A DNA stretch of 64,000 nucleotides, taken from Cetorhinus maximus (Eukaryota). The notes under the pieces are model-generated. The model was not told where the DNA came from. It saw nothing but the letters and a program-made list of their open reading frames with translations, and did not search any database. The translations under genes and the position numbers were made by a program. Below are positions 2,937 to 59,987 of the stretch, piece after piece; the stretch's first letter is position 1; the number at the start of each line of letters is the position of its first letter. Where the stretch lies: assembly GCF_964194155.1 (NCBI RefSeq), contig NC_135916.1, positions 992,001 to 1,056,000 on the forward strand. The letters run 5' to 3'.

Positions 2937-3380
<444 letters not shown>

Positions 3381-9350: not shown

Positions 9351-10211
9351 CTCCCCCTGTCTGTGTTAATTCCCAGCTGGTAAATATCACTCTGCACCTG
9401 ACAGAGTCTGATACTTACATTTCACTTTTATTCTGACAGAATCTCCAAGTGCATTTTCCTCTCTGACTCTCATTTATGTGTGTGTCTGAATCATTGTCGA
9501 TTTTACGGTGAGCCTGTTAGCCGACAATATTTATGAATGATGGCCACCTTTCAGTTTTCCATTTAGTATGAAAGCATGAACCTATTTTCCATGTCCCTCT
9601 CGGTTTATGGAATGGACTGATTTGTTTTGATCAGCGACTTAAAGTTTTTAATGCATGTTCATGTGTGTTTTTACAGTAGCCATCAAGATCAGCGATGTGT
9701 GTAGCCATGCTTCTCCTATTTTGAAAAGGCTTATAGAAAATTTGATTTTATTCTGCATCTCTATGTCCCTGGAATGTGTCTGTGGTTTTACAATGTAATT
9801 GTCTGTCTCTGTTATGGGAATGCAGGATAGTTCCGTGTCGGTCAGACTCTCCTCTGAGAGTGGTGTTATGTTATTCTCTGTACTTGTCAATATCTGCTTT
9901 GTGAGTTAAGTTTTAACCATTTTTTGTTTGTAGTGATCTGTCGAAGTGAGTGTTTGTGACAATATTCCTCTGGCATGTCTATGCACGCCTCCATTAACAA
10001 AAATATACTCTATCTTGATTTCTGATATTGAATAAGATTTTTGGAATGGAATTTAACTTGTTGCTTTGCGAGAACTTTGCATGTATTCATGAAGAATTCT
10101 GCAAACATTAATTGTCTGATATTTAAGTTGTAGCTAATGATCTACTCTTGTGACATGAATGGACTGCCCTTCAATCTGATAATGTTTGCGATTTTGGACT
10201 GAAATTGGTGC

Positions 10212-10703
10212 TGTTGTGCTTTCTTCTAAGAATCGAATACAGTGACACAGATACAAGTTTAGGATTGTTTATTAAAGGGAACAACAGGGAGGGTCTGCTC
10301 CCTTTGAATGCCTAAAACAGAACTCTACCGATTACAGGATAACAATCTTTTTAAACACTAAACCGTTCACGTACACATTACACTATTCTAATTCCAATCT
10401 TGGCAGTACATAATCACATGACAATCAGATGCCGCCAGTCCGAGGAACATACATTTACTTTCCCAAGCAGGGCCTCTTCATCTCGTTCTAGCCTGGCTCT
10501 ATCCCTGATACTCTTTGTCATTACACTGATGTGTTTATCTTCATCCCTCTTCTATCTCCTAACCAGTTAATCCCTTATGATCCCAAAGGTCTTCCTAGAG
10601 AGAGCTGCTGATACCAGCCCTTATGGTGTACAAGTTTTCACTGGAGAATTTTGCTGACCTTTGGTTTCACTAAAAACATAGAAATCGCTGCTTACCTCTT
10701 ACA
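10212..10703 (-). mobile_element. Solo LTR
   Basis: 492-bp insert absent from the paralogous site at ~29490; TGT...ACA termini; GTGC/GTGG imperfect TSD; minus-strand AATAAA at 10268-10273. Confidence 0.7.
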
Positions 10704-10799
10704 GTGGGTCTACCATTCAGCAGTACCGAGTAGCAGTGTTTTGTGGGGAATATAATTCAGTCTCCCCTGTGTGTTAGCCTACTGGATTGATCATGTGTA

Positions 10800-11727
10800 T
10801 CAGGGTTTGAGTTCAATTCGAGTCTGACTATTTCTGCTCTGGGTGATGGTCACAGTGATGTTCTGTCTGTATCTGTGCACTCTTGGAGTAGGATCGTACC
10901 TGCTGCCAGTTAGAAGGAGATAGCTGCACCTCTGTGTTGGCTGGTGGAACTTGAGATTGAAACTGACCCCTTCATTAACCTGCCAGAGAGGAAGAAAGAT
11001 ATCTCCAGTAAGGCAAAATCAGCTGAGGTCAGTAAAAGGCAATAGATCAATGTAATATTTCAACTGATAATCAATTTCAAAAATACTGTACATATCATGG
11101 CGGACAACGAAAAAACTACAGTGTCTGATTCCACTTCTAACTATTGAGTGAGATTCAGAATCAACCCGCATCTGCACTGCTCCAAGTGTGTCACTACCAG
11201 GGCCCAGAGATATTGGTACAGGACAGATTTCAATTTCCAGCTCCCTTTGTAAGAACCGCCAACTCAATCTAACTGTGGAAGGTACAATGTTTCTTTGAGA
11301 CGCCTCAGCTGAACAGCTGGTGCCTGCAACACGTGTCGTTAACGTTACTGCTCCACTCCTTACTCTCCGTCTGTTTCCACGATTCACTGTCCAAAAGCCA
11401 ACACGTTGTGTGAATCAGCAGCTAAACTTGGAATATGCATTACAGGATTGAGGGGGGATATCCCAATAGTTTTCAATTGCAGCTTGCTCAGGTTCTGTCT
11501 CCCTCAGCAGGGCCACACACAGCCCCAGAAAGGCCTCTCCCCGACCACCAGCTCACTCCAAGTTCCGGAACACGTTCCCGCTCCGCTCCGCCTCTTACAA
11601 ACAGCCCCCCGGTTCCCCCTGAACTTACCCCGAGTCAATGATGATTGCTGTGTCCACACTGACAAACCGGTGCCCTGCTGGAATCAGAACGCTGTTTACT
11701 CGCTTACCCGGGCCCCAGTATTTCCAT
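10800..11727 (-). pseudogene. Disrupted copy of the putative spliced spacer gene (exons 11727-11708 and 10899-10800)
   Basis: MEILGPG exon, GTAAGC donor, CAGCAG acceptor; premature TGA after 39 aa, further stops and a downstream LTR insertion. Confidence 0.35.
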
Positions 11728-11760
11728 TTCCGTCTGATTGAAACAAAGGTCTTCCGCTCG

Positions 11761-11870
11761 CTGAGTGAAAGGACGTCAAGGGCAGTGGTTGGTGGGAAGG
11801 GAAGCGCGCATGCGCCCGACTAGTCACCGAGAAATTCCAAAACGCAGGGCTGCAATGCGCATGTGCTTTT
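11761..11870 (-). promoter_or_regulatory. NRF1-type promoter
   Basis: GCGCATGCGC at 11806-11815 plus TGCGCATGTGC; retained in all three spacers. Confidence 0.6.
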
Positions 11871-13227: not shown

Positions 13228-14183
13228 ATGGCTGGGCAGGTGATGTGCTGTAGCTGTATGATGTGGGAGCTGGCAGATCCCAATGCGAGCCACAGTGACC
13301 ACATCTGCAGCAAGTGTTGTTGCTGGAGGAACTCCGGCTCAGAATTGATGAGCTGGAGTCCGAGTTCTGGACACTGCGGCACCTTCGGGAGGGGGACAGT
13401 TACCTGGACGCTTTGTATCAGGAGGCGGTCTTACCTGGTAGATTAAGTACCTCAAATCCGGTCAGTGGTCAGGGTCAGCAGGGTGTGACTGCAATTGAGG
13501 CAGGTAGAGGGATCCTGTGTTCAGTAAGTGAGGACCCTCAGCTCTTGACCTTGTCCAACAGGTACGACGTACTTGCTCCCTGTATGGATGGGGAACAGGG
13601 CTGTAGGGAGGATGAGCCAGCTGACCACGGCACCATGGCACAGGAGGCCCTTCAAGAGGGGGGAGCACAGAGACAAGTGGTAGTTGTAGGGGATTCTATA
13701 ATTAGGGGAATTGATAGATTCCTTTGTAAGCAGGATCGAGGGTCCCGCATTGTATGTTGCCTGCCCTGTGCCAGGATGAAGGACATCTCTGACCGGCTTG
13801 AAAGGATATTGGAGAGGGAGTGGGAGGATCCAGTTGTTGTGGTCCACGTCGTGACAAATAACATAGTTCAGACTAGGAAACAGGACCTGTTTGGGGATTA
13901 TCAGGAACTAGGAACTAAATTAAAGAACAGGTCCTCAAGGGTTATAATCTCTGGATTACTACCCGAGCAACGTGCAATTTGGCATAGGGACACAAGAATA
14001 AGGGAAGTAAACACGTGGCTAAAGGAGTGGTGCGGGAAAGAGGGGTTCCATTTCGTGGGGCACTGGCATCAGTATTGGAACAGGAGGGATCTGTACCGTT
14101 GGGACGGTCTCCACCTGAACCGATCTGGGACCAATGTTCTAGCGAAAAGCGTAAGTAGAGTATTCAACAGGACTTTAAACTAG
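13228..14183 (+). pseudogene. CR1 ORF1 (zinc finger, coiled coil, SGNH esterase), frameshifted
   Basis: CxxC..CxxC, VVVGDSIIR and DGLHLN motifs; frameshift near 13320. Confidence 0.88.
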
Positions 14184-14223
14184 AAAGTGGGGGGGGGGAG
14201 GGAAGGGTAAAACTGCAAGAAAT

Positions 14224-17200
14224 ATGACTAATGGGAAACAGAGCAGCAGGTTAGCATGTGGGGTGGTGGATTCAACTTCATGGAAAATTATGAAAAAACT
14301 GAAAAGAAAGGAGAGCCCAGGAGAGGCTATTAAAGTCTCCAGAACACAAAATAGGACAGAGTGTTTGGAAAGGGCTAGGAATCTAACTTCAAGCACATCA
14401 GATAAAGGGACGACAATGAGAAAGGGGACGGGAAATACAGGACTGAAGGTGTTGTATCTGAATGCACACAGTATACGAAATAAGGTAAATGAGCTTGTGG
14501 CGCAGATTGAAATTGGCAGGTATGATCTGGTGGGCATTACGGAGACATGGCTGCAAGGGGATCAGGGCTGGGAGCTAAATATCCAAAGATATACAACCTA
14601 TCGAAAAGATAGGCAGATTGGCAGAGGAGGTGGGGTTGCTTTGTTAGTAAGAAATGAAATTAAATCGATAGCAAGAAATGATGTAGGGTCAGAGGATGTA
14701 GAATCTGTGTGGTTAGAGTTGAGGAACCACAAAGGTAAAAAAAAACATAATGGGATTTATGTACAGGCCTCTGAACAGTAGTCAGGATGTGGGCCACAAG
14801 ATACACCAGGAGATAGAAAAGGCGTGTAAGAAAGGCAAGTTTACAGTGATCATGGAGGATTTCAATATGCAGGTAGAATGGGAAAATCAGCTTGGTAGTG
14901 GATCCCAAGAAAAGGAATTTGTGGAATGTCTACACGATGGCTTTTTGGAGCAGCTTGTGGTGGAGCCCACTAGGGAACAGGCAATTCTAGATTTAGTGAT
15001 GTGTAATGAGGCAGCTAAGGGAGCTAAAGGTGAAGGAACCCTTAGGAGGAAGTGACCATATTATGATAGAATTTACCCTGCAATTTGAGAGGAAAAAGCT
15101 GGAATCAGATGTAACGGTATTACAGTTGAATAAAGGCAACTACAGAGGCATGAGGGAGGAGCTGGCCAGAATTGACTGGGAGATAAGCCTAGCAGGAAAG
15201 ACAGTGGAACATCAATGGTAGGAGTTTCTGGGAGTAATTTGGGAGAAAAAGCAAAAATTCATCCCTAGGAAGAAGAAGCATACTAAAGGGAGGATGAGGA
15301 AACCATGGCTGACAAGGGAAGTCCGGGACAGCATAAAAGCTGAAGAGAAAGCATACAATGCGACGAAGAGCAGTGGGAAACCAGGGGATTGGGAAGCCTA
15401 CAAAGACCAACAGAGGACAACTAAAAAAGAAATAAGGAGGGAGAAGATTAAATATGAGGGTAAACAAACAGTAATATAAAAGAAGATTGCAAAAATTTTT
15501 TTTACATATATAAAGGGCAAGAGAGAGGCAAAAGTGGATATTGGGCCGCTGGAAAATGACGCTGGAGAAGGATTAGTGGGGAACAAAGAAATGGCGGAGG
15601 AACTGAATAGGTACTTTGCGACAGTCTTCACAGTGGAAGACACGAGTGACATGCCCAAAGTTCAAGAGAGTCGGGGGACAGAGGTGAGTATGGTGGCAAT
15701 TAACAATAAGAAGGGGCTAGGAAAACTGAAAGGTCTGAAGGTGGATAAATGACCTGGACCAGATGGATTACACCCCAGAGTTCTGAAGGAGATAGCTGAA
15801 GAGACAGTGGAGGCGTTAGTGGTGATCTTTCAGGAATCACTGGACTCAGGGATGTTCCCAGAGGACTGGAAAATCGCTAATGTAACCCCCTTGTTTAAGA
15901 AGGGAGTGAGGCAAAAGTCGGGAAATTACAGGTTTAATAGCCTGACTTCTGTCATTGGTAAGATTTTAGAGTCCATTATTAAGGATGAGATTTCAGAATA
16001 CTTGGAAGTGCATGGTAAAATCGGGCAAAGTCAGCATGGTTTCATCCAAGGGAGGTCATGCCTGACAAATCTGTTAGAATACTTTGAGGATGTAACGAGT
16101 AGGTTAGACAAAGGAAAGCCAATGGATGTTATGTATTTGGACTTCCAGAAGGCCTTTGACAAGGTGCCACACAGGATGCTGATCAGTAAGATAAGAGCCC
16201 ATGGTGTTAGAGGCAAGGTACTAGCATGGATAGAAGATTGGCTGTCTGGCAGAAGGCAGAGAATGGGCATAGGGGGGTCCACCCCAGGATGGCGGCCGGT
16301 GAGTAGTGGAGTTTTGGAGGGGTCAGTGTTGGGACCACAACTTATCACTTTATATATTAATGATCTAGTTGAAGGAACTGAGGGCATCCTGGCTAAGTTT
16401 GCAGATGATATAAAGATAGGTGGAGGGACAGGTAGTATTGAGGAGGCGGGGAGGCTGCAGAAGGATTTGGACAGGTTTGGAGAATGGGCAAAGAAGTGAC
16501 AGATGGAATACAACGTGGGGAAGTGTGAGGTCATGCATTTTGGTAGGAAGAATAGAGGCATAGACTATTTTCTAAATGGGGAGAGAATTCAGAAATCTGG
16601 ATTGCAAAGGGACTTGGGAGTGCTAGTCCAGGATTCCCTTAAGGTTAACTGCAGGTTGAGTCATTAGTTAGGAAGGCAAATGCAATGTTGGCATTTACTT
16701 CGAGAGGACTAGAATATAAAAGCAGGGATGTGGTGCTGAGGGTTTCTAAGGCTCTGGTCAGACCACATTTAGAATATTGTAAGCAATTTTGGGCCCCGTA
16801 TCTCAGGAAGGATGTGCTGGCCCTGGAGAGGGTCCAGAGGAGGTTCATGAGAATGATCCCAGGAATGAAAAGCTTAACATATGAGGAACGTTTGAGGACT
16901 CTGGGTCAATACTCGATGGAGTTTAGAAGGATGAGGGGGGATCTGATTGAAACTTACAGAATACTGAAAGGCCTGGATAGAATTGACGTGGGGAAGATGT
17001 TTCCATTAGTAGGAGAGACTAGGACCCAAGGGCACAGCCTCAGAGTAAAGGGCAGACCTTTTAGAACAGAAATGATGAAAAACTTCTTTAGCCAGAGAGT
17101 GGTGAATCTATGGAAATCAATGCCACAGAAGGCTGTGGAGGCCAGGTCACTGAGTGCATTTAAGACCGAGGTAGATAGGTTCTTCATTGGTAAGGGAATC

Positions 17201-17236
17201 AAAAGTTACGGGGAGAAGGTGGGAGTATGGGGTTGA
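14224..17236 (+). pseudogene. CR1 ORF2 (APE endonuclease and RT), broken into several frames
   Basis: YLNAHS, ITETWL, SDH, YLDFQKAFD and FADD motifs; multiple stops and frameshifts. Confidence 0.92.
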
Positions 17237-17767: not shown

Positions 17768-18187
17768 AACTGTGTTTGTGTGACCGTTCTGATCAGGACA
17801 TTTCCGAGTCCCGCTTAGGTAAAATAAAAATAATTTCCAAAGAAATACACCCCCTGCTCCCCAGCTTGACGCCAAAGTGAGATTTCAAGACAATTTCTTT
17901 GTTGTTTTCTAGATTTCAGACTAAAAGTAGAGGACATGTCATCGATCGGGTGAAGGAGCCGCAGTTAATCGGGTTTAAATCGAAATTGGAGTCTTCAATT
18001 CGAGTGAAATATTTTCGACAGCGAACATTACAGTGTCAGAGATGAGAAGGATTCAGTCTGGGACACTGCAGAGCCGGAATTTCCATGGAATTGGGAAGTT
18101 TGTGAGGAGAGAAAAACACAGAGAGGCAGCAGCAGCCTGGAGCTGACAGCAGCCTGTCTCCGCCCCGTCCGCTCGCTGCCTTTAAGT
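17768..18187 (+). promoter_or_regulatory. H1 promoter: TG box-like, AC box, GC box, TATA-like
   Basis: TGTGTTT at ~17772, AAACACA at ~18114, CCGCCCC-GTCCGC, TTTAAG; same before H1 at 33657 and 52029. Confidence 0.7.
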
Positions 18188-18266: not shown

Positions 18267-18923
18267 ATGACCGATACTGCAGCCGCCGAAACGGCTCCTC
18301 CAGCCGCTCCCGCCGCCCAGGTCAAGACTCCCAAGAAGAAGAAGAAGGCGGCTCCCCGGAGCAGTGCAGCCGGTCCCAAGCTGGGCGAGCAGATCCTCAA
18401 GGTTGTGGCGGATTGCAGCGATCGCAAGGGGATGTCGCTGCCCGCGATCAAGAAGGCGCTGCGCGGCAAAGGGCTGGATGTGGAGAAACTCGGCTCCCAG
18501 ATCAAGCAAAGCGTCAAGAGGAATGTGAAGAATGGCTTCCTGGTTCAGGTCAAGGGCACGGGCGCCTCGGGCTCCTTCAAAGTCCCTAAGAACACAACCC
18601 CGGGGAAAGTGGGAAAGAAGGCGAAGGCAGCAGCTGGCAAGAAATCTCCAGTGAAGAAAGCGGCAGCCAAGAAGGTGACAGCAAAGAAAGCAGCGGCCAA
18701 AAAAACTCCAGTCAAGAAAGCAACGGCCAAGAAATCTCCAGTCAAGAAAGCAGCGGCCAAGAAATCCCCAGCGAAGAAAGCAGCGGCCAAGAAAACAGCC
18801 AAGAAGGCGGCAACTCCCAAAAAACCGGTGAAGAAAGCAGCCCCCAAGAAAAAGTCTCCGGCCAAGAAGGTGACGGGCGTCAAAAAAGTGGCGATAGCGA
18901 GGGCCAAGCCCAAAACGAGATAA
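18267..18923 (+). CDS. H1: Histone H1
   Basis: 218 aa; globular domain ending KGTGASGSFK; K/A/P-rich tail. Confidence 0.97.
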   Translation: MTDTAAAETAPPAAPAAQVKTPKKKKKAAPRSSAAGPKLGEQILKVVADCSDRKGMSLPAIKKALRGKGLDVEKLGSQIKQSVKRNVKNGFLVQVKGTGASGSFKVPKNTTPGKVGKKAKAAAGKKSPVKKAAAKKVTAKKAAAKKTPVKKATAKKSPVKKAAAKKSPAKKAAAKKTAKKAATPKKPVKKAAPKKKSPAKKVTGVKKVAIARAKPKTR

Positions 18924-19583: not shown

Positions 19584-19886
<303 letters not shown>

Positions 19887-24794: not shown

Positions 24795-27700
24795 ATTTTC
24801 TTAGACTGCTATGAAATATATAGCCCTGACTAAATTCTGAGGTACTGCATTGCAATTTATTAAGTAACGTACAGTGAGCTATCTTTTTTCTGTTCTGGCT
24901 AAGAAGATTTAAGTAATATCTGATGAGAATGAAAGAGAGAGTATGATATTTGTTGTGTTTTCTTTTAATCCTTTGATTGGTCTGCTGGATTATATGGTAG
25001 ATGGAAATATAAACCATATTAAGACTCTCCGGAGCAGTTTGTCTTTTGGATTGAACAGTTGTCTCTTCCCTTTGAAACAGTGTGGGAATGAATAATTATT
25101 TACTCGTGACAGTGGACATAATGACCTGGCAGCATCTCTGTTCTCTGTGAACGATGCTGCAAGTATCTTGTGTTGGAACAAGCTCACTTTTCATCTTGCT
25201 TATGTTATAACTTTTATAGTTGTCACTATTATGTATCCACCTTAGTTACTAGCCTCATCTGTCGATGCATAGCATTGTTTGTGAGCTGAGATTTGTTCAC
25301 TTCTTTTTAAATTGATCATTTCAACCATTTTATGTGTACCATTGTTTCCACTGCATATTAATTTATTAATTTGCAGGCCTGTACTATTATTTGAGTAATG
25401 TTTCCATTTTTAAAAATGATGCTGAATTTCACTTTCATAACATATGGGTGAAAAGATTATTTTGTCATCTTATTGGAATTGGGATCCCCCTTCTTTGCTG
25501 CAATTAATTCTATGAATTGCATGTAAAGTCACTGGGATCCATTTAGGTATTTTAACCTGTATCAAATATATTATTTTCGCTGGAATGGAAGTGTGAAGTT
25601 GGTCTGTAACTCTCAGGATTTGTTTGTAATTACACTGCACGTTAATTTTTGCTGTGAGTGACTGACTGTTTAGAAAATCCACCCATGTCATTTTTTTTTT
25701 TAGCATAAGATGTGTTTCATTCTCTATTTTACAGTTTTGTTTTATAAATGAGTGTAAGTTCTGTATAATTGTGTGCATTTTCAGGTATGTGAGTATGATT
25801 AGTTTTTATTCTCCTGTTGTATTTATTAATTTCTAAGATGCCAAAATGTGATTTTGACATGGTGCCTGTCAGTTACTGGTAAGTGAGTGCTAGTGTTACA
25901 CTGTCCCTGTGAATATCTGTTGTATGAGCATTACTTTGTAGCACTTCATTACTTGCAAGTGACTTTTTTTTCTCCCTCTTTGTGGCATGTGAATGTGAAT
26001 ATGTGTGTTGCTCTTACTTGGCATTTGACAGTTTTGTTACGTGTCTGGTAAGTTAATGTGAATTTACACTCTTTCTTTTTCAGTTTTTAACATGTAAACA
26101 TGTATTTGAGACTGATTCCCAATCTCTGGCATGAAAATTAGGAAATACCATAAATGTTTCAGTTTTTTATTCTGGATGTGTCACAAATATTCTTTAATCA
26201 TTCTTCTCTTGTAAAGAAATTCTAAGATTTACTCAGATTCTCTTAGTAATGTTATGAAATTGTGTGATTATTGAACTGTGTGTAAGCCTGTCTGTGTGTG
26301 TGCACCTGTCTGTGTGTGTGTGGGTGTGTGTGTGGGTGTGTGTGCCTGTTTATGCTCCTTTTGTCTATCTTATGTGTGAATGGACTTTTCTCTCTATCTG
26401 TCATTTTTCAATATGTACATGTGCACATTGACTGGCACTCACAAGTATCTGGCATGCTGGTAAAGGTACATTTTGTACATATCCAGTTTTAGCTTTTCCC
26501 TTAGGATAGCCTTGGCTTTAAGTTGTAATATTCAGCTTCTGGTATGGAAGTGTGCATGTTACCCGTACCTGACCCTTTCAGATATGAGAGTGTGGTATTC
26601 AAATTGTCTGCTCGTTTCTAGCCTCTGATGTGAGCATTTTTACTTTTGTTAAAGTTAGCATTTTTAATGAGACTCTGCATTTACTGTGAATTTCAGTATC
26701 TGATCTACGATTGTGGATTTTAATCAGTCCTGATTTGTTTCTGTTTGGGATTGATATCTCTGTTATAGGAGTGATATATTCCATTCTGTTATTGTCACTT
26801 TCTAATGAGGTGAACGATCCTTTTTGATCAGAATCTGTTTAATTTTGGTGCCTGAATATGGGATTTCCTTTGCAATTGTCAGATTTTGACATGAAGGAAT
26901 GTTTATAATCTGTAGCAAAAGCAAAAACAAAATATCTACAGGTGGATGCTTGAAATCTCAAGAAAAAGGAAACACAATTGCTGGAAATACTGAGCAGGCC
27001 AGACAACATCTGTGGAGTCAGGAGCTGAATTACCCTCCACCTGAAAATTCTGACATCAGAAAAGGTCATTGAACTGTCATGTTCACTCTCAGCCTTTCTG
27101 AACAGGTGCTGGCTTCCTTGCTGAGTATTTCCTGCATTGTTGGTGTTTCTTCCTACCCTTGTACGTGTTAATTTCCAACAAGTGAATATGGCATCACTGT
27201 GCACCTGCCAATGTCTGACAAATATGTTTCACTTCTATTCTGACAGGGTTTCAACGTAGAATTTGGTGTGCATGTGTGCACATGTGCATGTTTCTAGAAT
27301 GGTAGAAATTTTTTTTTTCTGCACTTTTCATAGAATGCTATGCGAATGTCAGTTCCCCCTGTATCTGTCACTTTTTAACATGTTACTATGAGTCTTATTG
27401 TTTACCTGTCTGTGAATGGGGATTTTAAAATGCACCAAGTTATTTGCTGCTGTGTGACTGATTTCTTTTATACATGTTTGGAATTAATTATGGGTTTTTA
27501 AAAAATATATATACTTTATTTATAAAACATCTGAAAGAAAATTTCTAAATCGCCATCACAAGAAGTGAAAACAGATTCAACTTTTAGACATGGATCACGA
27601 GATGCTTCAATACATTCAATGAATATTACAATCATTTCAATATGGTCATTACAGACAGTCAGACAGCGCAATGATATTGGAGTTATCAACATACATCATG

Positions 27701-28676
27701 TTGCACATTTGAGGTGTTACAGTGCTATTACTATTCAATGCAGATATTTTTTGTGAGCAGTACAGCTTTACTCTGGGTATTTAACTCTCTGTAATGCACT
27801 TGTGGCTATTACTCTGCAGCTGCCAGTGACTGACATGTGAGGATGCATTTTGCATTCACTGTTGCTGACATGTAATGCATATTTTACTACTTAACTCTCA
27901 GTTACTGGTATATAGATGTGCAGATTTTATTCTGTATCAGTAATTCTGTGATATGTCAGTTTGATTCATTTTCCTGTTGTTTGGGTCAGGGTCAGAAGTA
28001 TGATCATGGAAAAATAAATATGTTGAAACTCTTAGGCTATTTTAAATGAATGAGAATTTAATTATTTCCTTTCAATCCCCGGCATGAGAATGTGGCCTAT
28101 GCTTATCATATTCTTGTAGGTGAGTATTGTCTTTCCTCCAGGTCTGTATGCACCTTGTAGGTCATTGTCGGTTTTGCCGTGAACATGTCAGCCTGTATTA
28201 CTTGAGTGTGATGTTCACATTGCAGCTTTCAATTTAGTGTGTGAGCATAGACCATTCGTTCCCTCCTCCCAACCCTTCAACCCAAAGCTACAGATTTTGA
28301 TGCATGTTCATGTGTGATTTTACCGTAGCTATCAACGTCTGCTTTCTGGGTACCCATTTTCTTCTTATTTTGAAAATTCTGATGTGGAAAAAATGATTTT
28401 ATTCTGCACCTCTCTATCGCTGGTATGTGTCTGTGGTTTTACAATGTAAGCATCTGCCCCTGTCATGGGAATTCAGGTTTCTTCTGTATCTGTCAGTCTC
28501 TCCTATGAGAGCGGTGAAACGTTATTTGCTGTACTTGTCAATATCTGCTTTGTCAGTTAAGGTTTAAGCTTTCTTGTTTGTAGAGATCTGTTGATATAAC
28601 TATTAGTGAGAATATTGCTCTGGCACGTGATGTGTATGTGTGTCTGTCTTAATGAATATGTACTTTATCATTATCA

Positions 28677-29295
28677 GGGGAGGCGATGGTGTGGTGATGT
28701 TGTCATTGGGCTATTAATCCAAAGACCTAGGGTAATACTCTGGGGACACGGTTTTGAATCCTGCCGAGGTTTGGCGGATTCTGAAATCAATAAAAATCTG
28801 GAATTAAAAGAATAATGGTGACCATTGTCGATTCTTGTAAGAATCCATCTGGTGCACTAATGCAGGAAACCTGTTGTCCTTACCTGGTCTGGCCGACATG
28901 CGGTGTTGTGTTAGACCCACTTGGCCACACAGTTGTAATAAACTGCTAAAAAGTCACAAAAATGGAATGGAATCAGATGGACCACCCGACATTGAGTGAG
29001 GCTCCGGAAACAAAAACGACTAAACTCAGCCCTGTTGACCCTGAGGGTAGATGGGAACACCTCCAGCTAGAATTTCCACTCCAAGTCACTCCACCATCCT
29101 GACTTGGAAATATATCCTGTTCCTTCACTGTTGCTGGGGAAAAAATTTGGAATTGACTCCCTAACAGCACTGTGGGTGTACCTACACCACGTGGACAGCA
29201 GGGGTTCAAGAAAGCAGCTCACCACCACCTTCTCAAGGGCAACTAAATGGTGGCACAGCCAGCAAAGCCACATCCCGTGAATGAATTTTAAAAAA
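28677..29295 (+). mobile_element. tRNA-derived SINE with LINE-like tail
   Basis: A-box-like TGGTGTGGTG, degenerate B box, tail GCAGCTCACCACCACCTTCTCAAGGGCAA...TGAATGAAT; absent from the first spacer. Confidence 0.7.
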
Positions 29296-29450
29296 GATAT
29301 TATATAGGATCTTTGGTGTTGAATTTATGGTGTTGCTTTATGAATGCTGGGTGCACTCAAGGATTAATTCTGTAAATTTCAATCAGCTTTAATACCTGGT
29401 ATTTAAATTACAGGCGATGTTCTACTCTTGTGACATGAAAGGGCTGCCCT

Positions 29451-30491
29451 TCAATCTGATAATGGCTGTGATTGTTGACTGCAATTGGTGGACCTGCAAT
29501 TAAGCAGTACTGAGTAGGAGTGTACTGTGGTAAAATTATTCCACCTCCCCTGAGTGTCTGACCATTGGATGGAGCATTTGTACCTAGTTTTGAGATCAAT
29601 TTGAGCCTGACTATTTCTGTTCTCGGTGATGGTGGAGCTGATGTTCTGTCTGTATCTCTGCACTCTCGGAGTAACATCGTACCTGCTGTCAGTTAGAAAG
29701 AGGTGGCTAGACTTTTATTTTTCCTGGGATATCATCAGCTTGAAATTGATCCTTTCATTGATTTGCCTGGGGGAAGAAACAAAAGTCTTATAACTCAAAA
29801 TCAGCAGAGGACATTGAAAGACAATAGGTCAACGTAATATTTCAACTGACAATAAATAAAAAAATATATATCTAAATGCAAAACATAACGAAACAATAAA
29901 AACTACAGTGTCTGATTCCACGTCAGCAACCTGCTTTGGTAGTTATCAAGCAATTGAGTGACACTCAGAAACAATCCACATCTGTATGGCTCCAAGGGTG
30001 ACACTCCCCGAGGAAACAAAGACAGTTCAGATTTCAATATCCTGCTCCTAGCCGGTGCTAAAATGTTTATATCTTAATAGCTGGTGCCTCCAATACGTGT
30101 CCCCTACATGGTTTCTCTCCTCCTTACTCTCTGCCTGTTTCGACTGTTCACTGTCCAAATGCCGACAAGTTGCATGAATCAGCAGCTATACTTGGAATAT
30201 GCATTACAGGTTTGAGGAGAGAAAATCCCAATAGTTTTCAATTGCAGCTTCCTCAAGTTCTGTCTCCCTCAGCAGGGCCACACACAGCCCCATAAAGGAC
30301 TCTCCCCGTTCAACCGCTCACTCCAAGTTCCTGAACACGTTTGCGCTCCGCTCCGCCTCTTACAAACAGCCCCCGGTTCTCCCTGAACTTACCCCGAGTC
30401 AATGATGATTTCTGTGTCCACACTGACAAACCGGCGACCTGCTGGAATCAGAACGCTGTTTATTCGCTTACCCGGGCCCTAAGATTTCCAT
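29451..30491 (-). CDS. Putative two-exon 83-aa protein of unknown function (30491-30472 joined to 29682-29451)
   Basis: GAAATGG start, GG|GTAAGC donor, CTAAC..CAGCAG acceptor, in-phase open frame; prediction only. Confidence 0.35.
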
Positions 30492-30524
30492 TTCTATCTG
30501 TTTGAAACAAAGATCTCCCGCTCA

Positions 30525-30640
30525 CTGGGCGCATGCGCTCTTCTAGTCATGTATGGGGAAACTGAAGGAGGGCAACAATGCGCACGCGCTTCTCTGGAAG
30601 AGACGTCACAGAACAAACGTCATTTGCTCCTCCCCTCAGT
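30525..30640 (-). promoter_or_regulatory. NRF1-type promoter
   Basis: GCGCATGCGC at 30529-30538, TGCGCACGCGC, GACGTCA. Confidence 0.55.
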
Positions 30641-31614
30641 CAATGTTCTCCAGCTTGAGCATCACAATGGGTCTGTGTGGAACGGGCAGAGTTTCAGGCA
30701 GGTGGACGACTCCTGTATGAAGCTCAAACTGATATCGCTCCCTGCAGCATCTTTGCTGTTCATTCACAGGTTTAGCAAATCAATCCGCCCAGTGAATCTA
30801 TGTGTTTGCTGTGACCAGGCAGAAGTTAATGTCTGGTCTTAAAATCACTGTTTAATAAAATCAGTTTGAACCTCTCAGTCACTGAGTGTCAATTCGAACA
30901 TTTTTTATCCAAAGTTTACAGAGAGCTCCAGAGGTTATGGATCATTACATTTCGGATACTATTCACCTCACCCACTGGCATTACTTCTGTGTGTGTGATA
31001 GAAATGTGTCTGCCTCTGGCCCAGTATTAGCTGGAGCTGAATCACGTCATCTCTCACCTCTGTGGGTCTGTCAGTTTTAAATTAGTTTTCCCGATCAGGT
31101 TCAGCATCTTCGGTCTTTCAAAAAGGAAAACTCTCAATCTTCTAATTTCCAATGATTAAAAGTTCAACTTGTTTATGATTCCCTCATCAGTCAACAGCAT
31201 CATTTCTGGAATCTAGTCAGGAAAATTCACTGAATAATTTCAAGAGAATTATATCCCTCTCTGGTTCTAAAGGATGTTTGGGACAAAATTATTAATTCTC
31301 ATATTTTTATATTCTATTGAAATACTGATGATCTGTATGCCTCTATCCGATGATAGATATGAGGGCCACTCATTGCTATATTGACACGTGGTAGCAATAG
31401 AGAGACCGATTTCTCTGCCTCTCCCTCCCTTGCTCCTTCTATCTCCTTCAATCTTGCTCCCTCTCCCCCCTATCTCGCGACTTCTGGTGCTGTGCAAGTT
31501 AATAATGTTAATGATAGGTCAATATACACTGGCAATGTGAACACTCCCCCAGTGTTATGAGTCAGAATGTCACTGTTCCTTCTCCTCTCGGAAATTCAGG
31601 CCTGACATTTGATC

Positions 31615-31765
31615 TGATTTCAAAATTGATTTCACCCGAAGGAGAGTCACACTGACTCGAAAAGTTGACTCTGTCTTCCTCTCCACAGAGGCTCTCAGAG
31701 CTGCTGAGTTTTTCCAGCTATTTTTGTTTTTCAGATTTCCAACACCTGCACTATTTTGCTTTTAT
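31615..31765 (+). mobile_element. Degenerate Penelope-type pLTR fragment
   Basis: GAGTCACACTGACTCGAAA..CTGCTGAGTTTTTCCAGC; copy at ~49985-50140; absent at ~12655. Confidence 0.65.
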
Positions 31766-32043
31766 TTCATCGGTTCATCTCCAATCAAAAATCGAAGCGA
31801 GCTCTGAAAAGCCCTTTCATTGTCAGGAACTTGACTATGCGCGAATTTGTGTTCATATATAACTGGCCCGCTCTGGTTGTTGAGATTGGGGTACATTGCA
31901 AACTGTGAAATTTTGACCCGTCAGTTCAGTAGGAGCAACATAAACAGGGAAGTTTGGAGGGACCGGGAGCAGTTAATTTGTATTGTCATCAGAAATAAAC
32001 ATCTTGATGTGAGCTTTTCAGACAATAGCGTGAAATCATATAT

Positions 32044-32935
32044 CACAGAATCACACACAGTGCAGAAGAGGCCCTTCGGCCCATCGAGTCTGCACTGACA
32101 CGTGAGAAACACCTGACCTACCTACTTAATCACATTTACCAGCACTTAGCCCATAGGCTTGAATGTTATGACGTGCCAAGTGCTCATCCAGGTACTTTTA
32201 AAAGGATGTGAGGAAACCCGGCTCCACCACCCTCCAAGGCAGTGCATTCCAGACTGTCACCACCCGCTGGGTTAAAAAAAAGTTATTCCTCACAGTCGCC
32301 ATGAACCACCTGCCCCTCACCTTGAACATATACCCCCTTTTGACTGACCCTTCAAATAAGGGGAACACCTGCTCCCTATCCATACTGTATATGCCCCTCA
32401 TAATCTTGTACACCACGATCAGGTCGCCCATCAGTCTTCTCTGCTCCAACGTAAACAACACTAGACTATCCAACCTCTATTCATAACCTAAATGTTTCAT
32501 ACCAGGCAACATCCTGGTGAATATGCTCTGCACCCACTCCAGTGCAATCACATCCTTCCTATAATGTGGCCACCAGATTGTACTCCAGCTGTAGCCTCAC
32601 CAAGGTTCTATACAACTCCAACATGACCTCCCTACTTTTGTAATCTATGCCTCGATTGATTAAGGCAAGTGTCCCATATGACTTTCCCCCACCCCACTAA
32701 CATGCCCCAGCGCCTTCAGAGATCTAGGGACACACACGCCAAGGTCTCTTTGTTCCTCAGAACTTCCTAGTGTCATGCCGTTCATTGAATACTTCCTTGT
32801 CAAATTACTCCTTCCAAAGTGTATCACCTCACACTTTTCACGGTAAAACTCCATCTGCCTCTTATCTGCCCATTTGACCATCCCATCTATATCTTCCTGT
32901 AGCCCAACACACTCAACCTCGCTGTTAAACACCAA
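32044..32935 (-). mobile_element. CR1 3' fragment
   Basis: QMEF..KCEVIHFGR, QRDLGV and LEQRRLMGDL motifs; absent from the paralogous site at ~17528. Confidence 0.9.
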
Positions 32936-33656
32936 TCTGCGAATGAGACCATCTACGGCTCCCATGCCACAGAGAGCTAAACGTTCGCTGAGTTTACAAT
33001 CGACAATATTCTTCAAAGGAAAGGGAGCAAAGTACGAAAAAGGGGAGGAATTCACGCCTGAGAGCTTCACATTATTGACCGCTGTTCCCTGTAAACATGT
33101 AGATGTGAACATTGTGTAAGAGAGTGTTGGAACTGGGCGGGAGAGTCAGAGGAATGAAACTGTGTTTGTGTGTCCGTTCTGATCATGAGATTTCCGAGTT
33201 CTGCTTGCCTAAACTAAAAATATTTTCTATTCATAAGTTCCCTCTTTTCCCCAGCTTGACGCCAAAGTGAGATTTAAAGACAATTTCTTTGTTGTTATCT
33301 AGATTTCAGTCGAAAAGTAGAGGACATGTCAGAGATCGGGTGAAGGAGCCGCAGTAAATCCGGTTTTAATCGAAACTCGAGTCTTCAATTCGCGTCAAAT
33401 CTTTTCGACAGCAAACATTACAATGTCAGAGATAAGAAGGATTTAGTCTGGGACACTGGAGAGCCGGAATTTCCATGGAATTGGGGAGTTTGTGAGGAGA
33501 GAAAAACACAGAGAGGCAGCAGCAGCCTGGAGCTGACAGCAGCCTGTCTCCGCCCCGTCCGCTCGCTGCCTTTAAGTTGCTCAGTGCCGCCACCAGCGGC
33601 TTCATTTCTCAGCCCGTTCACATTGACAGAGACACTTTTGTGCAGAGTCCCGGAAC

Positions 33657-34313
33657 ATGACCGATACTGCAGCCGCCGAAACGGCTCCTCCAGCCGCTCC
33701 CGCCGCCCAGGTCAAGTCTCCCAAGAAGAAGAAGAAGGCGGCTCCCCGGAGCAGTGCAGCCGGTCCCAAGCTGGGCGAGCAGATCCTCAAGGTTGTGGCG
33801 GATTGCAGCGATCGCAAGGGGATGTCGCTGCCCGCGATCAAGAAGGCGCTGCGCGGCAATGGGGTGGATGTGGAGAAACTCGGCTCCCAGATCAAGCAAA
33901 GCATCAAGAGGAATGTGAAGAATGGCTTCCTGGTTCAGGTCAAGGGCACGGGCGCCTCGGGCTCCTTCAAAGTCCCTAAGAACACAACCCAGGGGAAAGT
34001 GGGAAAGAAGGCGAAGGCAGCAGCTGGCAAGAAATCTCCAGTGAAGAAAGCGGCAGCCAAGAAGGTGACAGCAAAGAAAGCAGCGGCCAAAAAAACTCCA
34101 GTCAAGAAAGCAACGGCCAAGAAATCTCCAGTCAAGAAAGCAGCGGCCAAGAAATCCCCAGCGAAGAAAGCAGCGGCCAAGAAAACAGCCAAGAAGGCGG
34201 CAACTCCCAAAAAGCCGGTGAAGAAAGCATCCCCCAAGAAAAAGTCTCCGGCCAAGAAGGTGACGGGCGTCAAAAAAGTGGCGATAGCGAGGGCCAAGCC
34301 CAAAGGGAGATAA
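33657..34313 (+). CDS. H1: Histone H1
   Basis: 218-aa paralog; stem-loop at 34371-34386. Confidence 0.97.
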   Translation: MTDTAAAETAPPAAPAAQVKSPKKKKKAAPRSSAAGPKLGEQILKVVADCSDRKGMSLPAIKKALRGNGVDVEKLGSQIKQSIKRNVKNGFLVQVKGTGASGSFKVPKNTTQGKVGKKAKAAAGKKSPVKKAAAKKVTAKKAAAKKTPVKKATAKKSPVKKAAAKKSPAKKAAAKKTAKKAATPKKPVKKASPKKKSPAKKVTGVKKVAIARAKPKGR

Positions 34314-45291: not shown

Positions 45292-46332
45292 TCAATCTGA
45301 TAATGGCTGTGATTGTTGACTGCAATTGGTGGACCTGCAATTCAGCAGTACTGAGTAGGAGTGTACTGTAGTAAAATTATTCCACCTCCCCTGAGTGTCT
45401 GACCATTGGATGGAGCATTTGTACCTGGGTTTGAGATCAATTTGAGCCTGACTATTTCTGTTCTCGGTGATGGTGGAGCTGATGTTCTGTCTGTATCTCT
45501 GCACTCTCGGAGTAACATCGTGCCTGCTGTCAGTTAGAAAGAGGTGGCTAGACGTTTATTTTTCCTGGGATATCATCAGCTTGAAACTGATCCCTTCATT
45601 GATTTGCCTGGAGGAAGAAACATAAGTCTTGTAACACAAAATCAGCAGAGGACATTGAAAAACAATAGGTCAACATAATCTTTCAACTGACAATAAATAA
45701 AAAAATATATATCTAGATGCAAAACATAACGATACAATAAATACTACAGTGTCTGATTCCACGTCAGCAACCTGCTTTGGTAGTTTTCAAGCAATTGAGT
45801 GACACTCAGAAACAATCCACATCCGTATGGCTCCAAGGGTGACACTCCCCGAGGATACAAAGACAGTTCAGATATCAATATCCAGCTCTCAGCCGGTGCT
45901 AAAATGTTTATATCTTAATAGCTGGTGCCTCCAAAGCGTGACCCCTACATGGTTACTCTCCTCCTTACTCTCTGCCTGTTACCACTGTTCACTGTCCAAA
46001 TGCCGACAAGTTGCATGAATCAGCAGCTATACTTGGAATATGCATTACAGGTTTGAGGGGAGAAAATCCCAATAGTTTACAATTGCAGCTTCCTCAGGTT
46101 CTGTCTCCCTCAGCAGGGCCACACACAGCCCCAGAAAGGCCTCTCCCCGACCACCCGCTCACTCCAAGTTCCGGAACACGTTCGCGCTCCGCTCCGCCTC
46201 TTACAAACAGCCCCCGGTTCCCCCTGAACTTACCCCGAGTCAATGATGATTTCTGTGTCCACACTGACAAACCGGTGCCCTGCTGGAATCAGAACGCTGT
46301 TTACTCGCTTACCCGGGCCCTAAGATTTCCAT
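45292..46332 (-). CDS. Putative two-exon 83-aa protein, second open copy (46332-46313 joined to 45523-45292)
   Basis: Same signals as 29451-30491; two amino acid differences; prediction only. Confidence 0.35.
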
Positions 46333-46404
46333 TTCTATCTGTTTGAAACAAAGGTCTCCCGCTCACTGAGTGAAAGGCCCTCAAAGGTCATTTCTTGGGA
46401 GAAA

Positions 46405-46515
46405 TGAGGGGCGCATGCGCTCTTCTAGCCATGTCTGAGAAAACTGAGGGCAGCAATGCGCAAGCGCTTCCCTGGAAGTGATGTCACAGAACAGACGTCA
46501 TTTGCTCCGCCCCTC
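46405..46515 (-). promoter_or_regulatory. NRF1-type promoter
   Basis: GCGCATGCGC at 46411-46420, GGAAGT, GACGTCA, CCGCCCC. Confidence 0.6.
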
Positions 46516-46761
46516 AGTCAATGTTCTCCAGCTTGAGCATCACAATGGGGCTGTGTTGAACGGGCAGAGTTTCAGGCAGGTAGACGATTACTGAATGAAG
46601 CTCAAACTGATATCGCTCCCTGCAGCATCTTAGCTGTTCATTCACCGGTTTAGCAAATCAATCCGCCCAGTGAATCTATGTCAAAAAAAAACAGAATTAC
46701 CTGGAAAAACTCAGCAAGTCTGGCAGCATCGGCGGAGAAGAAATCAGTTAACGTTTCGAGC

Positions 46762-48657
46762 CGTCTCAATTTCTCTGCTCCTCTCACCCATTCTAATCTG
46801 TCTCTCTCTGAACTCACTGCACTCCGTTCTCTCAGGTCCAACCCCAACATTGTCATCAAACCCGCTGACAAAGGTGGTACTGTTGTTGTCTTGCGCATGG
46901 ACCTCTACCTCGCGGAGGCTGAGCGTCAACTCGCAGACGTTTCCTCCTACCTCTCCCTGGACCATGACCCCACCACAGAACATCAAGCCATTGTTTCCAG
47001 GACTGTCACTGACCTCATCTCCTCTGGAGATCTTCCTCCCACAGCTTCCAACTTGATAGTCGCCCACCTCGGATGGCCTGCTTCTACCTCCTACCCAATA
47101 TCCACAAACAGAACTGTCCTGGCAGACCGATCGTGTCAGCCTGTTCCTGCCCCACGGAACTCATTTCTCGTTATCTTGACTCCCTTCTCTCTCCCCTTGT
47201 CCAGTCTCTTCCCACCTACATCCGTGATTCCTCTGACACCTTACGTCACATCAACAATTTCCAGTTCCCTGGCCCCAACCGCTTCCTCTTCACCATGGAT
47301 GTCCAATCCCTCTACACCTCCATCCCCCACCAGGATGGTCTGAGGGCCCTCAGCTTCTTCCTTGAACAGAGGCCCCAACAATCCCCATCCACCACTACTC
47401 TCCTCCGTCTGGCTGAACTTGTTCTCACACTGATCAATTTCTCCTTTAACTCCTCTCACTTCCTCCAAATAAAAGGTGTGGCTATGGGTACCCGCATGGG
47501 CCCCAGCTATGCCTGTCTCTTTATGGGGTATGTGGAACATTCCTTGTTCCGGTCCTACTCCGGCCCCCTCCCACAACTCTTTCTCCGGTACATCGATGAT
47601 TACTTCGGTGCTGCTTCATGCTCTCGTCGGGACCTGGAAAAATTTAGTAATTTTGCTTACAATCTCCACCCCTCCATCATCTTCACATGGTCCATCTCTG
47701 ACACTTCTCTTCCCTTCCTTGACCTCTGTCTCAATTTCTGATGATAGACTGTCCACCAATATCCATTACAAGCCTACCGACTCCCACAGCTACCTCGACT
47801 ACAGCTCCTCACACCCCGCTTCCTGTAAAGACTCCATCCCATTCTCTCAGTCCCTTCGCCTCCGTCGCATCTGTTCTGATGACGCTACCTTCAAAAACAG
47901 CTCCTCTGACATGTCCTCCTTCTTCCTTAACCGAGGTTTTCCATCCACGGTCGTTGACAGGGCCCTCAACCGTGTCCGGCCCATATCCCGCGCATCCTCC
48001 CTCACGCCTTCTCCTCCTTCCCAGAAACATGATAGGGTCCCCCTTGTCCTCACTTATCACCCCACCAGCCTCCGCATTCAAAGGATCATCCTCCGCCATT
48101 TCCGCCAACTCCATCATGATGCCACCACCAAACACATCTTCCCTTCACCCCCCTTGACGGCATTCCGTAGGGATCGTTCCCTCCGGGACACCCTGGTCCA
48201 CTCCTCCATCACCCCCTACTCCTCAACCCCCACTTATGGCACCTCCCCATGCCCACGCAGAAGATGCAACACCTGCCCCTTCACTTCCTCTCTCCTCACC
48301 GTCCAAGGGCCCAAACACTCCTTTCAAGTGAAGCAGCATTTCACTTGCATTTCCCCTAACTTAGTCTACTGCATTCGTTGCTCCCAATGCAGTCTCCTCT
48401 ACATTGGAGAGACCAAACGCAAACTGGGCGACCGTTTTGCGGAACAACTGCGGTCTGTCCGCAAGAAAGACCCAAACCTCCCTGTCGCTTGCCATTTCAA
48501 CACTCCACACTGTTCTCTTGCCAACATGTCTGTCCTTGGCTTGCTGCATTGTTCCAGTGAAGCCCAACGCAAACTGGAGGAACAGCACCTCATCTTCCGA
48601 CTAGGCACTTTACAGCCCACTGGGCTGAATATTGAATTCAACAACTTTAGATCTTAA
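46762..48657 (+). pseudogene. Penelope RT and GIY-YIG endonuclease ORF with two frameshifts
   Basis: IKPADKGG, GVAMGTRMGPSYA, RYIDD and NLVYCIRC..LYIGET motifs; shifts near 47065 and 47725. Confidence 0.9.
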
Positions 48658-51305: not shown

Positions 51306-52028
51306 AATTTGCGAATGAGACCATCTACGGCTCCCATGCCTCAGAGAGCTAAACGTTCGCTGAGTTTACAATCGACAATATTCTTCATAGAAAAGGGCGC
51401 AAAGTACGAAAAAGAGGAGGAATTCACGCCTGAGAGATTCACATTATTGACCGTTGTTGCCTGTAAACATGTAGATGTGAACATTGTGTAAGAGAGTGTT
51501 GGAACTGGGCGGGCGAGTCAGAGGAATGAAACTGTGTTTCCGTCTCCGTTCTGATCATGAGATTTCCGAGTTCTGCTTGCCTAAACTAAAAATATTTTAT
51601 ATTCAAAAGTTCCCTCTTTTCCCCAGCTTGACGCCAAAGTGAGATTTAAAGGCAATTTCTTTGTTGTTATCTAGATTTCAGTCGATAAGTAGAGGACATG
51701 TCAGAGATCGGGTGAAGGAGCCGCAGTAAATCCGGTTTTAATCGAAATTCGAGTCTTCAGTTCGCGTCAAATCTTTTCAACAGCGAACATTACAATGTCA
51801 GAGATAAGAAGGATTCAGTCTGGGACACTGGAGAGCCGGAATTTCCATGGAATTGGGGAGTTTGTGAGGAGAGAAAAACACAGAGAGGCAGCAGCAGCCT
51901 GGAGCTGACAGCAGCCTGTCTCCGCCCCGTCCGCTCGCTGCCTTTAAGTTGCTCAGTGCCGCCACCAGCGGCTTCATTTCTGAGCCCGTTCAGATCGACA
52001 GAGACACTTTTGTGCAGAGTCCCGGAAC

Positions 52029-53852: not shown

Positions 53853-54173
<321 letters not shown>

Positions 54174-59543: not shown

Positions 59544-59987
<444 letters not shown>

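Follow-up and report, generated by a model that had tools for sequence, protein, structure and literature searches.

An NRF1-type promoter and a probable spliced non-coding RNA recur among the histone genes of a tandem array in Cetorhinus maximus

CpG promoters driven by NRF1 and divergent (promoter-upstream) long non-coding RNAs (lncRNAs) form a known class of transcription units, and a bidirectional promoter is conventionally recognized by a head-to-head start lying within ~1 kb of a coding gene. Histone gene repeats can also harbor non-histone RNA genes, as illustrated by the 5S rRNA or rDNA genes interspersed in the histone repeats of Artemia, Mytilus, the boll weevil and Potamopyrgus (PMC13525598). 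The accessible text of that review contains no occurrence of shark, cartilaginous or chondrichth-. Histone clusters of sharks and rays have been described beside tRNA loci (bioRxiv 10.1101/2025.06.08.657570), and the accessible part of this preprint does not mention a unit of the kind reported here. Nor did we find a description of it in listings of the literature outside subscription journals and database annotations.

The unit was encountered in a window of 64,000 nucleotides of Cetorhinus maximus DNA (positions 992001-1056000 of contig NC_135916.1, hereafter C39), which belongs to a tandem histone array with H4, H3, H2A and H1 genes. A preliminary description had proposed that each of three long spacers in this window hides a co-amplified, spliced non-histone gene, oriented away from H1 on the minus strand and encoding a protein of 83 amino acids. 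The spliced minus-strand unit is supported by our analysis, its first donor being used in a contig of one sequencing run, and the protein is not. We regard it as likely that a promoter module, present once per histone unit, drives a spliced lncRNA of ~2.3 kb away from H1 and has been copied as a passenger. Since the 83-aa frame is broken in three quarters of its copies, the unit is most likely an RNA gene carried as a passenger and not a hidden protein gene; it is probably both transcribed and spliced.

The histone content of the array differs between units. No H2B gene was found across the 64 kb, H2A occurs in two places only (2937-3329 and 59544-59936), an additional H4 lies at 53862, and a degraded H4 copy with 72% protein-level identity occupies 19638-19883 in the second repeat unit. 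The H1 copies at 18267, 33657 and 52029 differ from one another mostly in amino acids, with 7, 7 and 12 non-synonymous versus 1, 6 and 5 synonymous codon differences. Each H1 promoter contains a minus-strand 10-nt motif (33559-33568, 18169-18178 and 51931-51940) resembling the initiator-like motif of the unit, possibly by chance. Fragmented insertions, presumably of the LINE type, separate the promoter module from H1 in two of the three spacers (13584-17236 and 46678-48657). Elsewhere on C39 the orientation of the array flips near 1.65-1.70 Mb, and an inverted partial copy of the last-exon region, devoid of a promoter, is found within 1926100-1936000, upstream of the array's final H1.

A 17-mer spanning donor 1 yielded 44 matches in a single array at C39 0.98-1.90 Mb (the reversed control gave 2), and an independent 24-mer recovered the same 44 copies along with one stray match containing 3 mismatches. 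The remaining 18 matches to the 17-mer are dispersed, and none of the 8 that were checked aligns to the unit. An origin from a transposable element, which the preliminary description had envisaged as a possible objection, is rejected: no dispersed copy of the unit was found among the 8 matches checked, and 44 of the 45 matches to the 24-mer lie in the array. The 44 copies resolve into three subfamilies, A (16 copies), B (15) and C (13), with a mutual identity of 73-79%, and two of the three spacers initially noticed hold copies of subfamily A and the third a copy of subfamily C. An LTR-like insert of ~492 nt, with an identical junction in 13/13 C copies, falls within the proposed coding region; in the first spacer it spans 10212-10703 (492 nt, TG...CA ends) within the exon-2 region. 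The coordinates of the principal features are collected in Table 1.

Table 1. Features of the unit near 30 kb, its paralogous copies and its neighborhood, in window coordinates
Feature	Position	Strand	Evidence or remark
Distal NRF1-like site, variant palindrome	30580..30589	-	Similar site at the same position in the C32 homologue
Proximal NRF1 consensus palindrome, predicted site	30529..30538	-	44/44 copies; exact match to consensus
Initiator-like motif, likely transcription start region	30518..30527	-	Kept in C32 homologues; contig depth falls here
Exon 1 (predicted), ATG at 30491	30472..30527	-	X3 joint at 30471, with 57 letters on the exon side; splice simulation
Splice donor 1	30466..30471	-	GT kept in 43/44 copies; used in one X3 contig
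Splice donor 2 (GTAAGT)	30387..30392	-	42/44 copies
Homogenized, CpG-enriched block common to three subfamilies	30150..30500	.	Between-subfamily identity
Intron, 705 nt (predicted)	29767..30471	-	Donor 1 to acceptor 29767
GT-AG intron, 128 nt	29894-29767	-	Acceptor 29767 shared with the 705-nt intron
Long last exon (predicted)	27500..29766	-	Overlapping contigs in three runs
Coding exon 2 of the preliminary description	29451..29682	-	Inside the predicted last exon; frame not conserved
Candidate poly(A) signal AATAAA, within a repeat	27515..27520	-	Fits the end of contig coverage
Paralogous copy, subfamily A	45292..46420	-	ATG 46332; 83-codon frame open
Paralogous copy, subfamily C (first spacer)	10100..11815	-	ATG 11727; frame ends after 39 codons
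Histone H1 gene	33657..34313	+	Divergent neighbor of the 30-kb unit, 3.2 kb off

The sequence elements on which the preliminary description was built are all in place: 1) the NRF1 palindrome GCGCATGCGC at 30529-30538; 2) the ATG at 30491, kept in 43/44 copies; 3) the donor GG/GTAAGC at 30472/30471; 4) a GTAAGT donor 79 nt further downstream, at 30392; and 5) the acceptor motif CTAAC..CAGCAG ending at 29683, of which the CAGCAG is kept in 43/44 copies and the CTAAC occurs in just 1 of the 15 subfamily-B copies. Equally, exon 1 of the first spacer does differ from the others by three synonymous changes only. The motif at 30518..30527 is termed initiator-like by comparison with the general initiator consensus; in 7/41 copies, the 30-kb copy included, ~41 nt are missing from the stretch that separates it from the NRF1 site. 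The CpG observed/expected ratio is 0.73 for 30150-30650, against ~0.34 in the flanks. The consensus used for comparison of the NRF1 site was that given in the accessible part of PMC10810270.

Evidence for transcription was sought in unstranded contigs of three runs (X1, X2 and X3), taken by guess to be RNA, which come from three studies of a related species diverged by 4-10%; each run has 10-11% of the sequence words, and the contigs were aligned to 26500-31300. These contigs, probably RNA of the related species, cover ~27.6-30.52 kb (~2.9 kb) and end at the promoter: their depth is 90, 34 and 892 in the three runs within 30364-30524, drops to 1, 0 and 5 within 30525-30685, and is 0 beyond. 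At the opposite end, the depth of X1 and X2 is 0 in 27144-27465, just past the AATAAA. The empty flanks could be an effect of divergence between the species. The intron bins have a depth of 7-145, and hence unspliced RNA or DNA is also present. A further, small run labeled with a closer species (X8) covers 5/30 bins, all of them repeats, which does not amount to evidence of absence.

GT-AG joints of the kind expected of a spliced lncRNA were found twice, each in one contig of one run, among 15 of 28 joints that were listed. The X2 contig skips 128 nt, from 29894 to 29767, with minus-strand GT-AG ends, and the X3 contig passes from donor 1 at 30471 to 29702 with unknown letters between, showing a second gap of the same depth at 29529-29600. 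Furthermore, long contigs terminate at 29765-29767 in all three runs. Splicing was simulated with 36 models from six genomic copies, and donor 1 to acceptor 29767 proved to be the sole simulated splice giving the observed boundary at 30471 (6/6 copies); with the previously proposed acceptor at 29683, the exon-1 alignment ends at 30469, not 30471. Simulated B-type copies also reproduce the X3 break at 29529, and the acceptor-side boundary at 29702 is matched only roughly (29698-29767 depending on the copy). Because both the 30471 boundary and the 29529 break are reproduced in the simulation, we interpret the X3 contig preferentially as a B-type transcript in which donor 1 is joined to 29767. 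No genomic copy lacking the intron was found, the interval measuring 785-831 nt in 30/31 copies in which both sites were located.

Acceptor 29767, which lies 84 nt upstream of 29683 and is preceded by 75% pyrimidine versus 65% at the latter, was overlooked in the preliminary description, yet it is the one to which the contigs point. Subfamily C is devoid of its AG, and a splice there would shift the frame. The junction 30472-29682 does not appear among the 15 of 28 joints listed, nor does any joint at donor 2, and the former may be used as a minor form. An arrangement with 29766-29683 as an internal exon followed by a donor at 29682 was considered and rejected: since contigs of three runs cross the site unspliced, this donor, which reads GTAAGT in the homologue on a second contig (C32), is at most ancestral or minor. 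The suspicion voiced at the outset, that the short frame might be a uORF of a lncRNA produced by the downstream donor, comes close to the right answer, which is reached through a different acceptor instead.

The resulting transcript model measures 2323 nt. Its first frame has 23 codons, its longest ATG frame 89 aa, and a conserved ORF of at least 100 codons is absent from it; the stop reported for the overlapping 89-aa frame in the 46-kb copy is indeed there. The last exon consists in part of remnants of an old 40-42-nt repeat and of interspersed repeats, with a decayed 40-42-nt period (z ~4) in 27700-28700 and no significant 41-nt periodicity inside the proposed ORF region (z ~1.8). A role as a snoRNA or miRNA host gene was rejected, as 27300-33700 gave 0 Rfam matches at E<=1, the intron contains no structured small RNA, and no stable fold was detected (the folding z was not lower than -1.8 in any of 64 windows). 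No rRNA or tRNA gene was found in the spacer, the Rfam matches in the window being only 5 histone stem-loops and no tRNA. Zinc-finger genes are common in shark clusters, and a remnant of such a gene was likewise rejected: the window has no C2H2 motif, and there is no zinc-finger array near the C32 copies.

The coding potential of the proposed frame was assessed across all copies. In the three spacers, the joined frame is open for 83 codons in the 30-kb and 46-kb copies, as had been claimed, and stops early in the first. The join 30472-29682 gives 83 aa in 11/44 copies and 16-107 aa in the rest: in subfamily A, 11/16 copies give 83 aa and the remaining five give 16, 37 or 41 aa; in subfamily B the product has 43-107 aa following a 1-nt deletion, with one copy lacking the ATG; and in subfamily C it has 39 aa in 13/13. 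Codons 8-37, which are common to all subfamilies, hold 12 synonymous and 37 non-synonymous variants, where 22% synonymous would be expected by chance; their omega of ~0.87 lies within the range of nine intron windows (0.69-1.38), and the other two frames are no worse. For the 83-aa frame omega is 0.80-0.92 (P 0.28-0.52), and variants found in at least 3 copies comprise 5 synonymous versus 32 non-synonymous (omega 1.8). The comparison of dN/dS across copies, advocated in the preliminary description, gives an exon-2 omega of ~0.9, and the substitutions look neutral. In subfamily A, 6/21 variants in the 83-aa frame are stop-gains, against 5.8% expected (P ~0.001, post hoc, several being of one lineage), possibly a chance excess. 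A homologue search with the exon-2 frame, at lengths of 41-133 aa, found none, in agreement with the initial failure to recognize one, and none of the three frames (3/3) matches a Pfam family.

The 5' portion of the unit behaves differently from the remainder. Between subfamilies, 30500-30150 is 94% identical versus 74-78% downstream, and the block extends ~240 nt beyond donor 2. Polymorphic sites shared across subfamilies number 14/83 in the block versus 7/181 (P=0.0008), and its divergence to the related species, in 9 contigs picked from 32 listed, is 6-10% versus 4-9% elsewhere. Given these shared polymorphisms and a block no more conserved between species, gene conversion is favored, and it is likely, judging from sequence comparison, that conversion rather than coding constraint keeps the 350 nt alike; selection as the cause of the block is not favored by the same divergence values.

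Another histone cluster, larger than the first and containing two diverged families of the module, is located at C32 8.7-21.3 Mb, and tRNA genes occur near some of its H1 genes. A profile search with the unit detected diverged homologues near the C32 histone genes, and the combination of NRF1 site and initiator-like motif occurs in 89 places, 69 on C32, 15 on C39 and 5 on small contigs (control 0). All 12 C32 copies examined keep the promoter and have neither the ATG nor donor 1, and in 4/4 translated copies every frame of the exon-2 region contains stops. The old part of the unit is the promoter module, and the peptide start is local to C39. That both clusters still have the promoter, at 40-70% identity, may be due to selection rather than hitch-hiking.

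In the reading that we prefer, a promoter module composed of two NRF1-type sites, an initiator-like motif and a CpG-enriched first exon would direct RNA polymerase II to start near 30527. The transcript would be spliced from donor 30471 to acceptor 29767, alongside alternative and unspliced forms, and would end near the AATAAA at 27520; the ribosome would meet short frames only, that of 23 codons first. The unit would be spread together with the histone genes by unequal crossing-over, its first 350 nt being kept uniform by gene conversion. A function, if there is one, would most likely be local, putatively residing in open chromatin or in the act of transcription, without a product.

A more ambitious version of this model, which we consider doubtful, holds that each repeat of the two histone clusters (>110 copies) is built with a dedicated, constitutive Pol II lncRNA unit, retained ever since the two clusters separated for the reason that the promoter or the nascent RNA helps to hold the array open or to organize the histone locus body outside S phase. 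A related alternative, unlikely in our estimate, is that selection maintains the module as a DNA element of the histone unit, such as an enhancer, a boundary or the remnant of a two-way promoter, with the RNA as a by-product. It overlaps the preferred explanation, the claim of selection being the sole difference. It draws on the presence of one module in each unit, divergent from H1 in 40/44 copies, on the head-to-head placement of C32 homologues with H4 at ~0.75 kb in 3/6 regions (one region is 1.8 kb from H1), and on the NRF1 site and initiator-like motif being kept in both clusters while their surroundings are not. Weighing against it, the H1 distance varies from 2.0 to 6.6 kb through insertions, the partner gene is not the same in both clusters, and the block is no better conserved between species than its flanks.

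That the unit yields a very short peptide or a regulatory uORF, of 7 codons (unspliced or via donor 2) or ~23 codons (to 29767), appears quite improbable. In codons 1-6, the variants found in at least 3 copies are all synonymous (3 versus 0 non-synonymous; P=0.01 post hoc, with six tests made), and the length of the 23-codon frame holds in 12/16 A and 14/15 B copies. Nevertheless, the single-copy variants of exon 1 change residues in 5/5 cases, one losing the ATG; codons 8-23 have 7 synonymous versus 17-21 non-synonymous variants (P=0.2-0.3), so that the 23-codon frame shows no detectable constraint; the frame would change in subfamily C, which has no AG at the acceptor; exon 1 falls within the conversion block; and the ATG is missing from the C32 homologues.

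It is slightly less credible still that the unit is silent, with the contigs stemming from DNA or read-through and the splice signals being relics of a dead gene. The RNA status of the runs is a guess, the intron is covered by contigs, and the small run from the closer species reaches repeats alone; against this, two joints fall at GT or AG boundaries with no genomic deletion copy found, and coverage ends at the promoter and near the AATAAA in independent studies. Finally, a co-amplified gene for the 83-aa protein, spliced from 30472 to 29682, is scarcely credible: the frame is open in 11/16 subfamily-A copies, the ATG, the donor GT and CAGCAG are each kept in 43/44, and donor 1 is used in one contig, but the frame is broken in 33/44 copies, 0/28 B and C copies encode the protein (through frameshifts, stops and the LTR-like insert), substitutions are neutral, the proposed branch-point region stays exonic in the joint seen, the C32 copies read as a donor-like GTAAGT at the homologous site and lack the ATG and donor 1 in 12/12 examined, and no homologue was found.

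The immediate consequence is that a false small-protein prediction is removed and replaced by an RNA model with a start at ~30527, a junction at 30472-29766 and an end at ~27500. If the unit is selected, it would be a regulatory component of vertebrate histone arrays that has gone undescribed; if it is not, it illustrates how gene conversion makes a promoter look conserved and how a young subfamily makes a chance ORF look shared. Were the dedicated-unit version true, the 5S-histone linkage would for the first time have a non-coding counterpart transcribed by Pol II, and this might include a constrained 7-codon uORF.

As far as the accessible parts of the respective sources allow, the unit can be placed among described systems. 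Like spliced lincRNA genes acting in cis or through transcription (PMC6238598), it has a predicted Pol II-type promoter and probable splicing, lacks a conserved ORF, and has exons evolving at the background rate; unlike them, it exists as 44 tandem copies within a histone array, and a second cluster harbors a related family. As in NRF1-driven CpG promoters (PMC10810270), an exact NRF1 consensus stands just upstream of the likely start, directed away from the coding gene. In contrast to divergent promoter lncRNAs, the unit lies too far from H1 for a shared core promoter, at 2.0-6.6 kb in 40/44 copies on C39 (counting exact pattern matches only), and a distance typical of bidirectional promoters is seen only toward H4, in the three C32 regions mentioned above. 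It would share with the read-through transcription of newt satellites (PMC2114352) the transcription of old tandem-repeat DNA, but it is equipped with a promoter and splice sites of its own, and its 40-42-nt period has decayed. In its arrangement it resembles the 5S/rDNA-histone repeats (PMC13525598), in which, as here, a non-histone RNA unit alternates with histone genes and undergoes concerted evolution. It does not belong to that class: the known examples are transcribed by Pol I or III, whereas the unit described here would be of Pol II type and is probably spliced.
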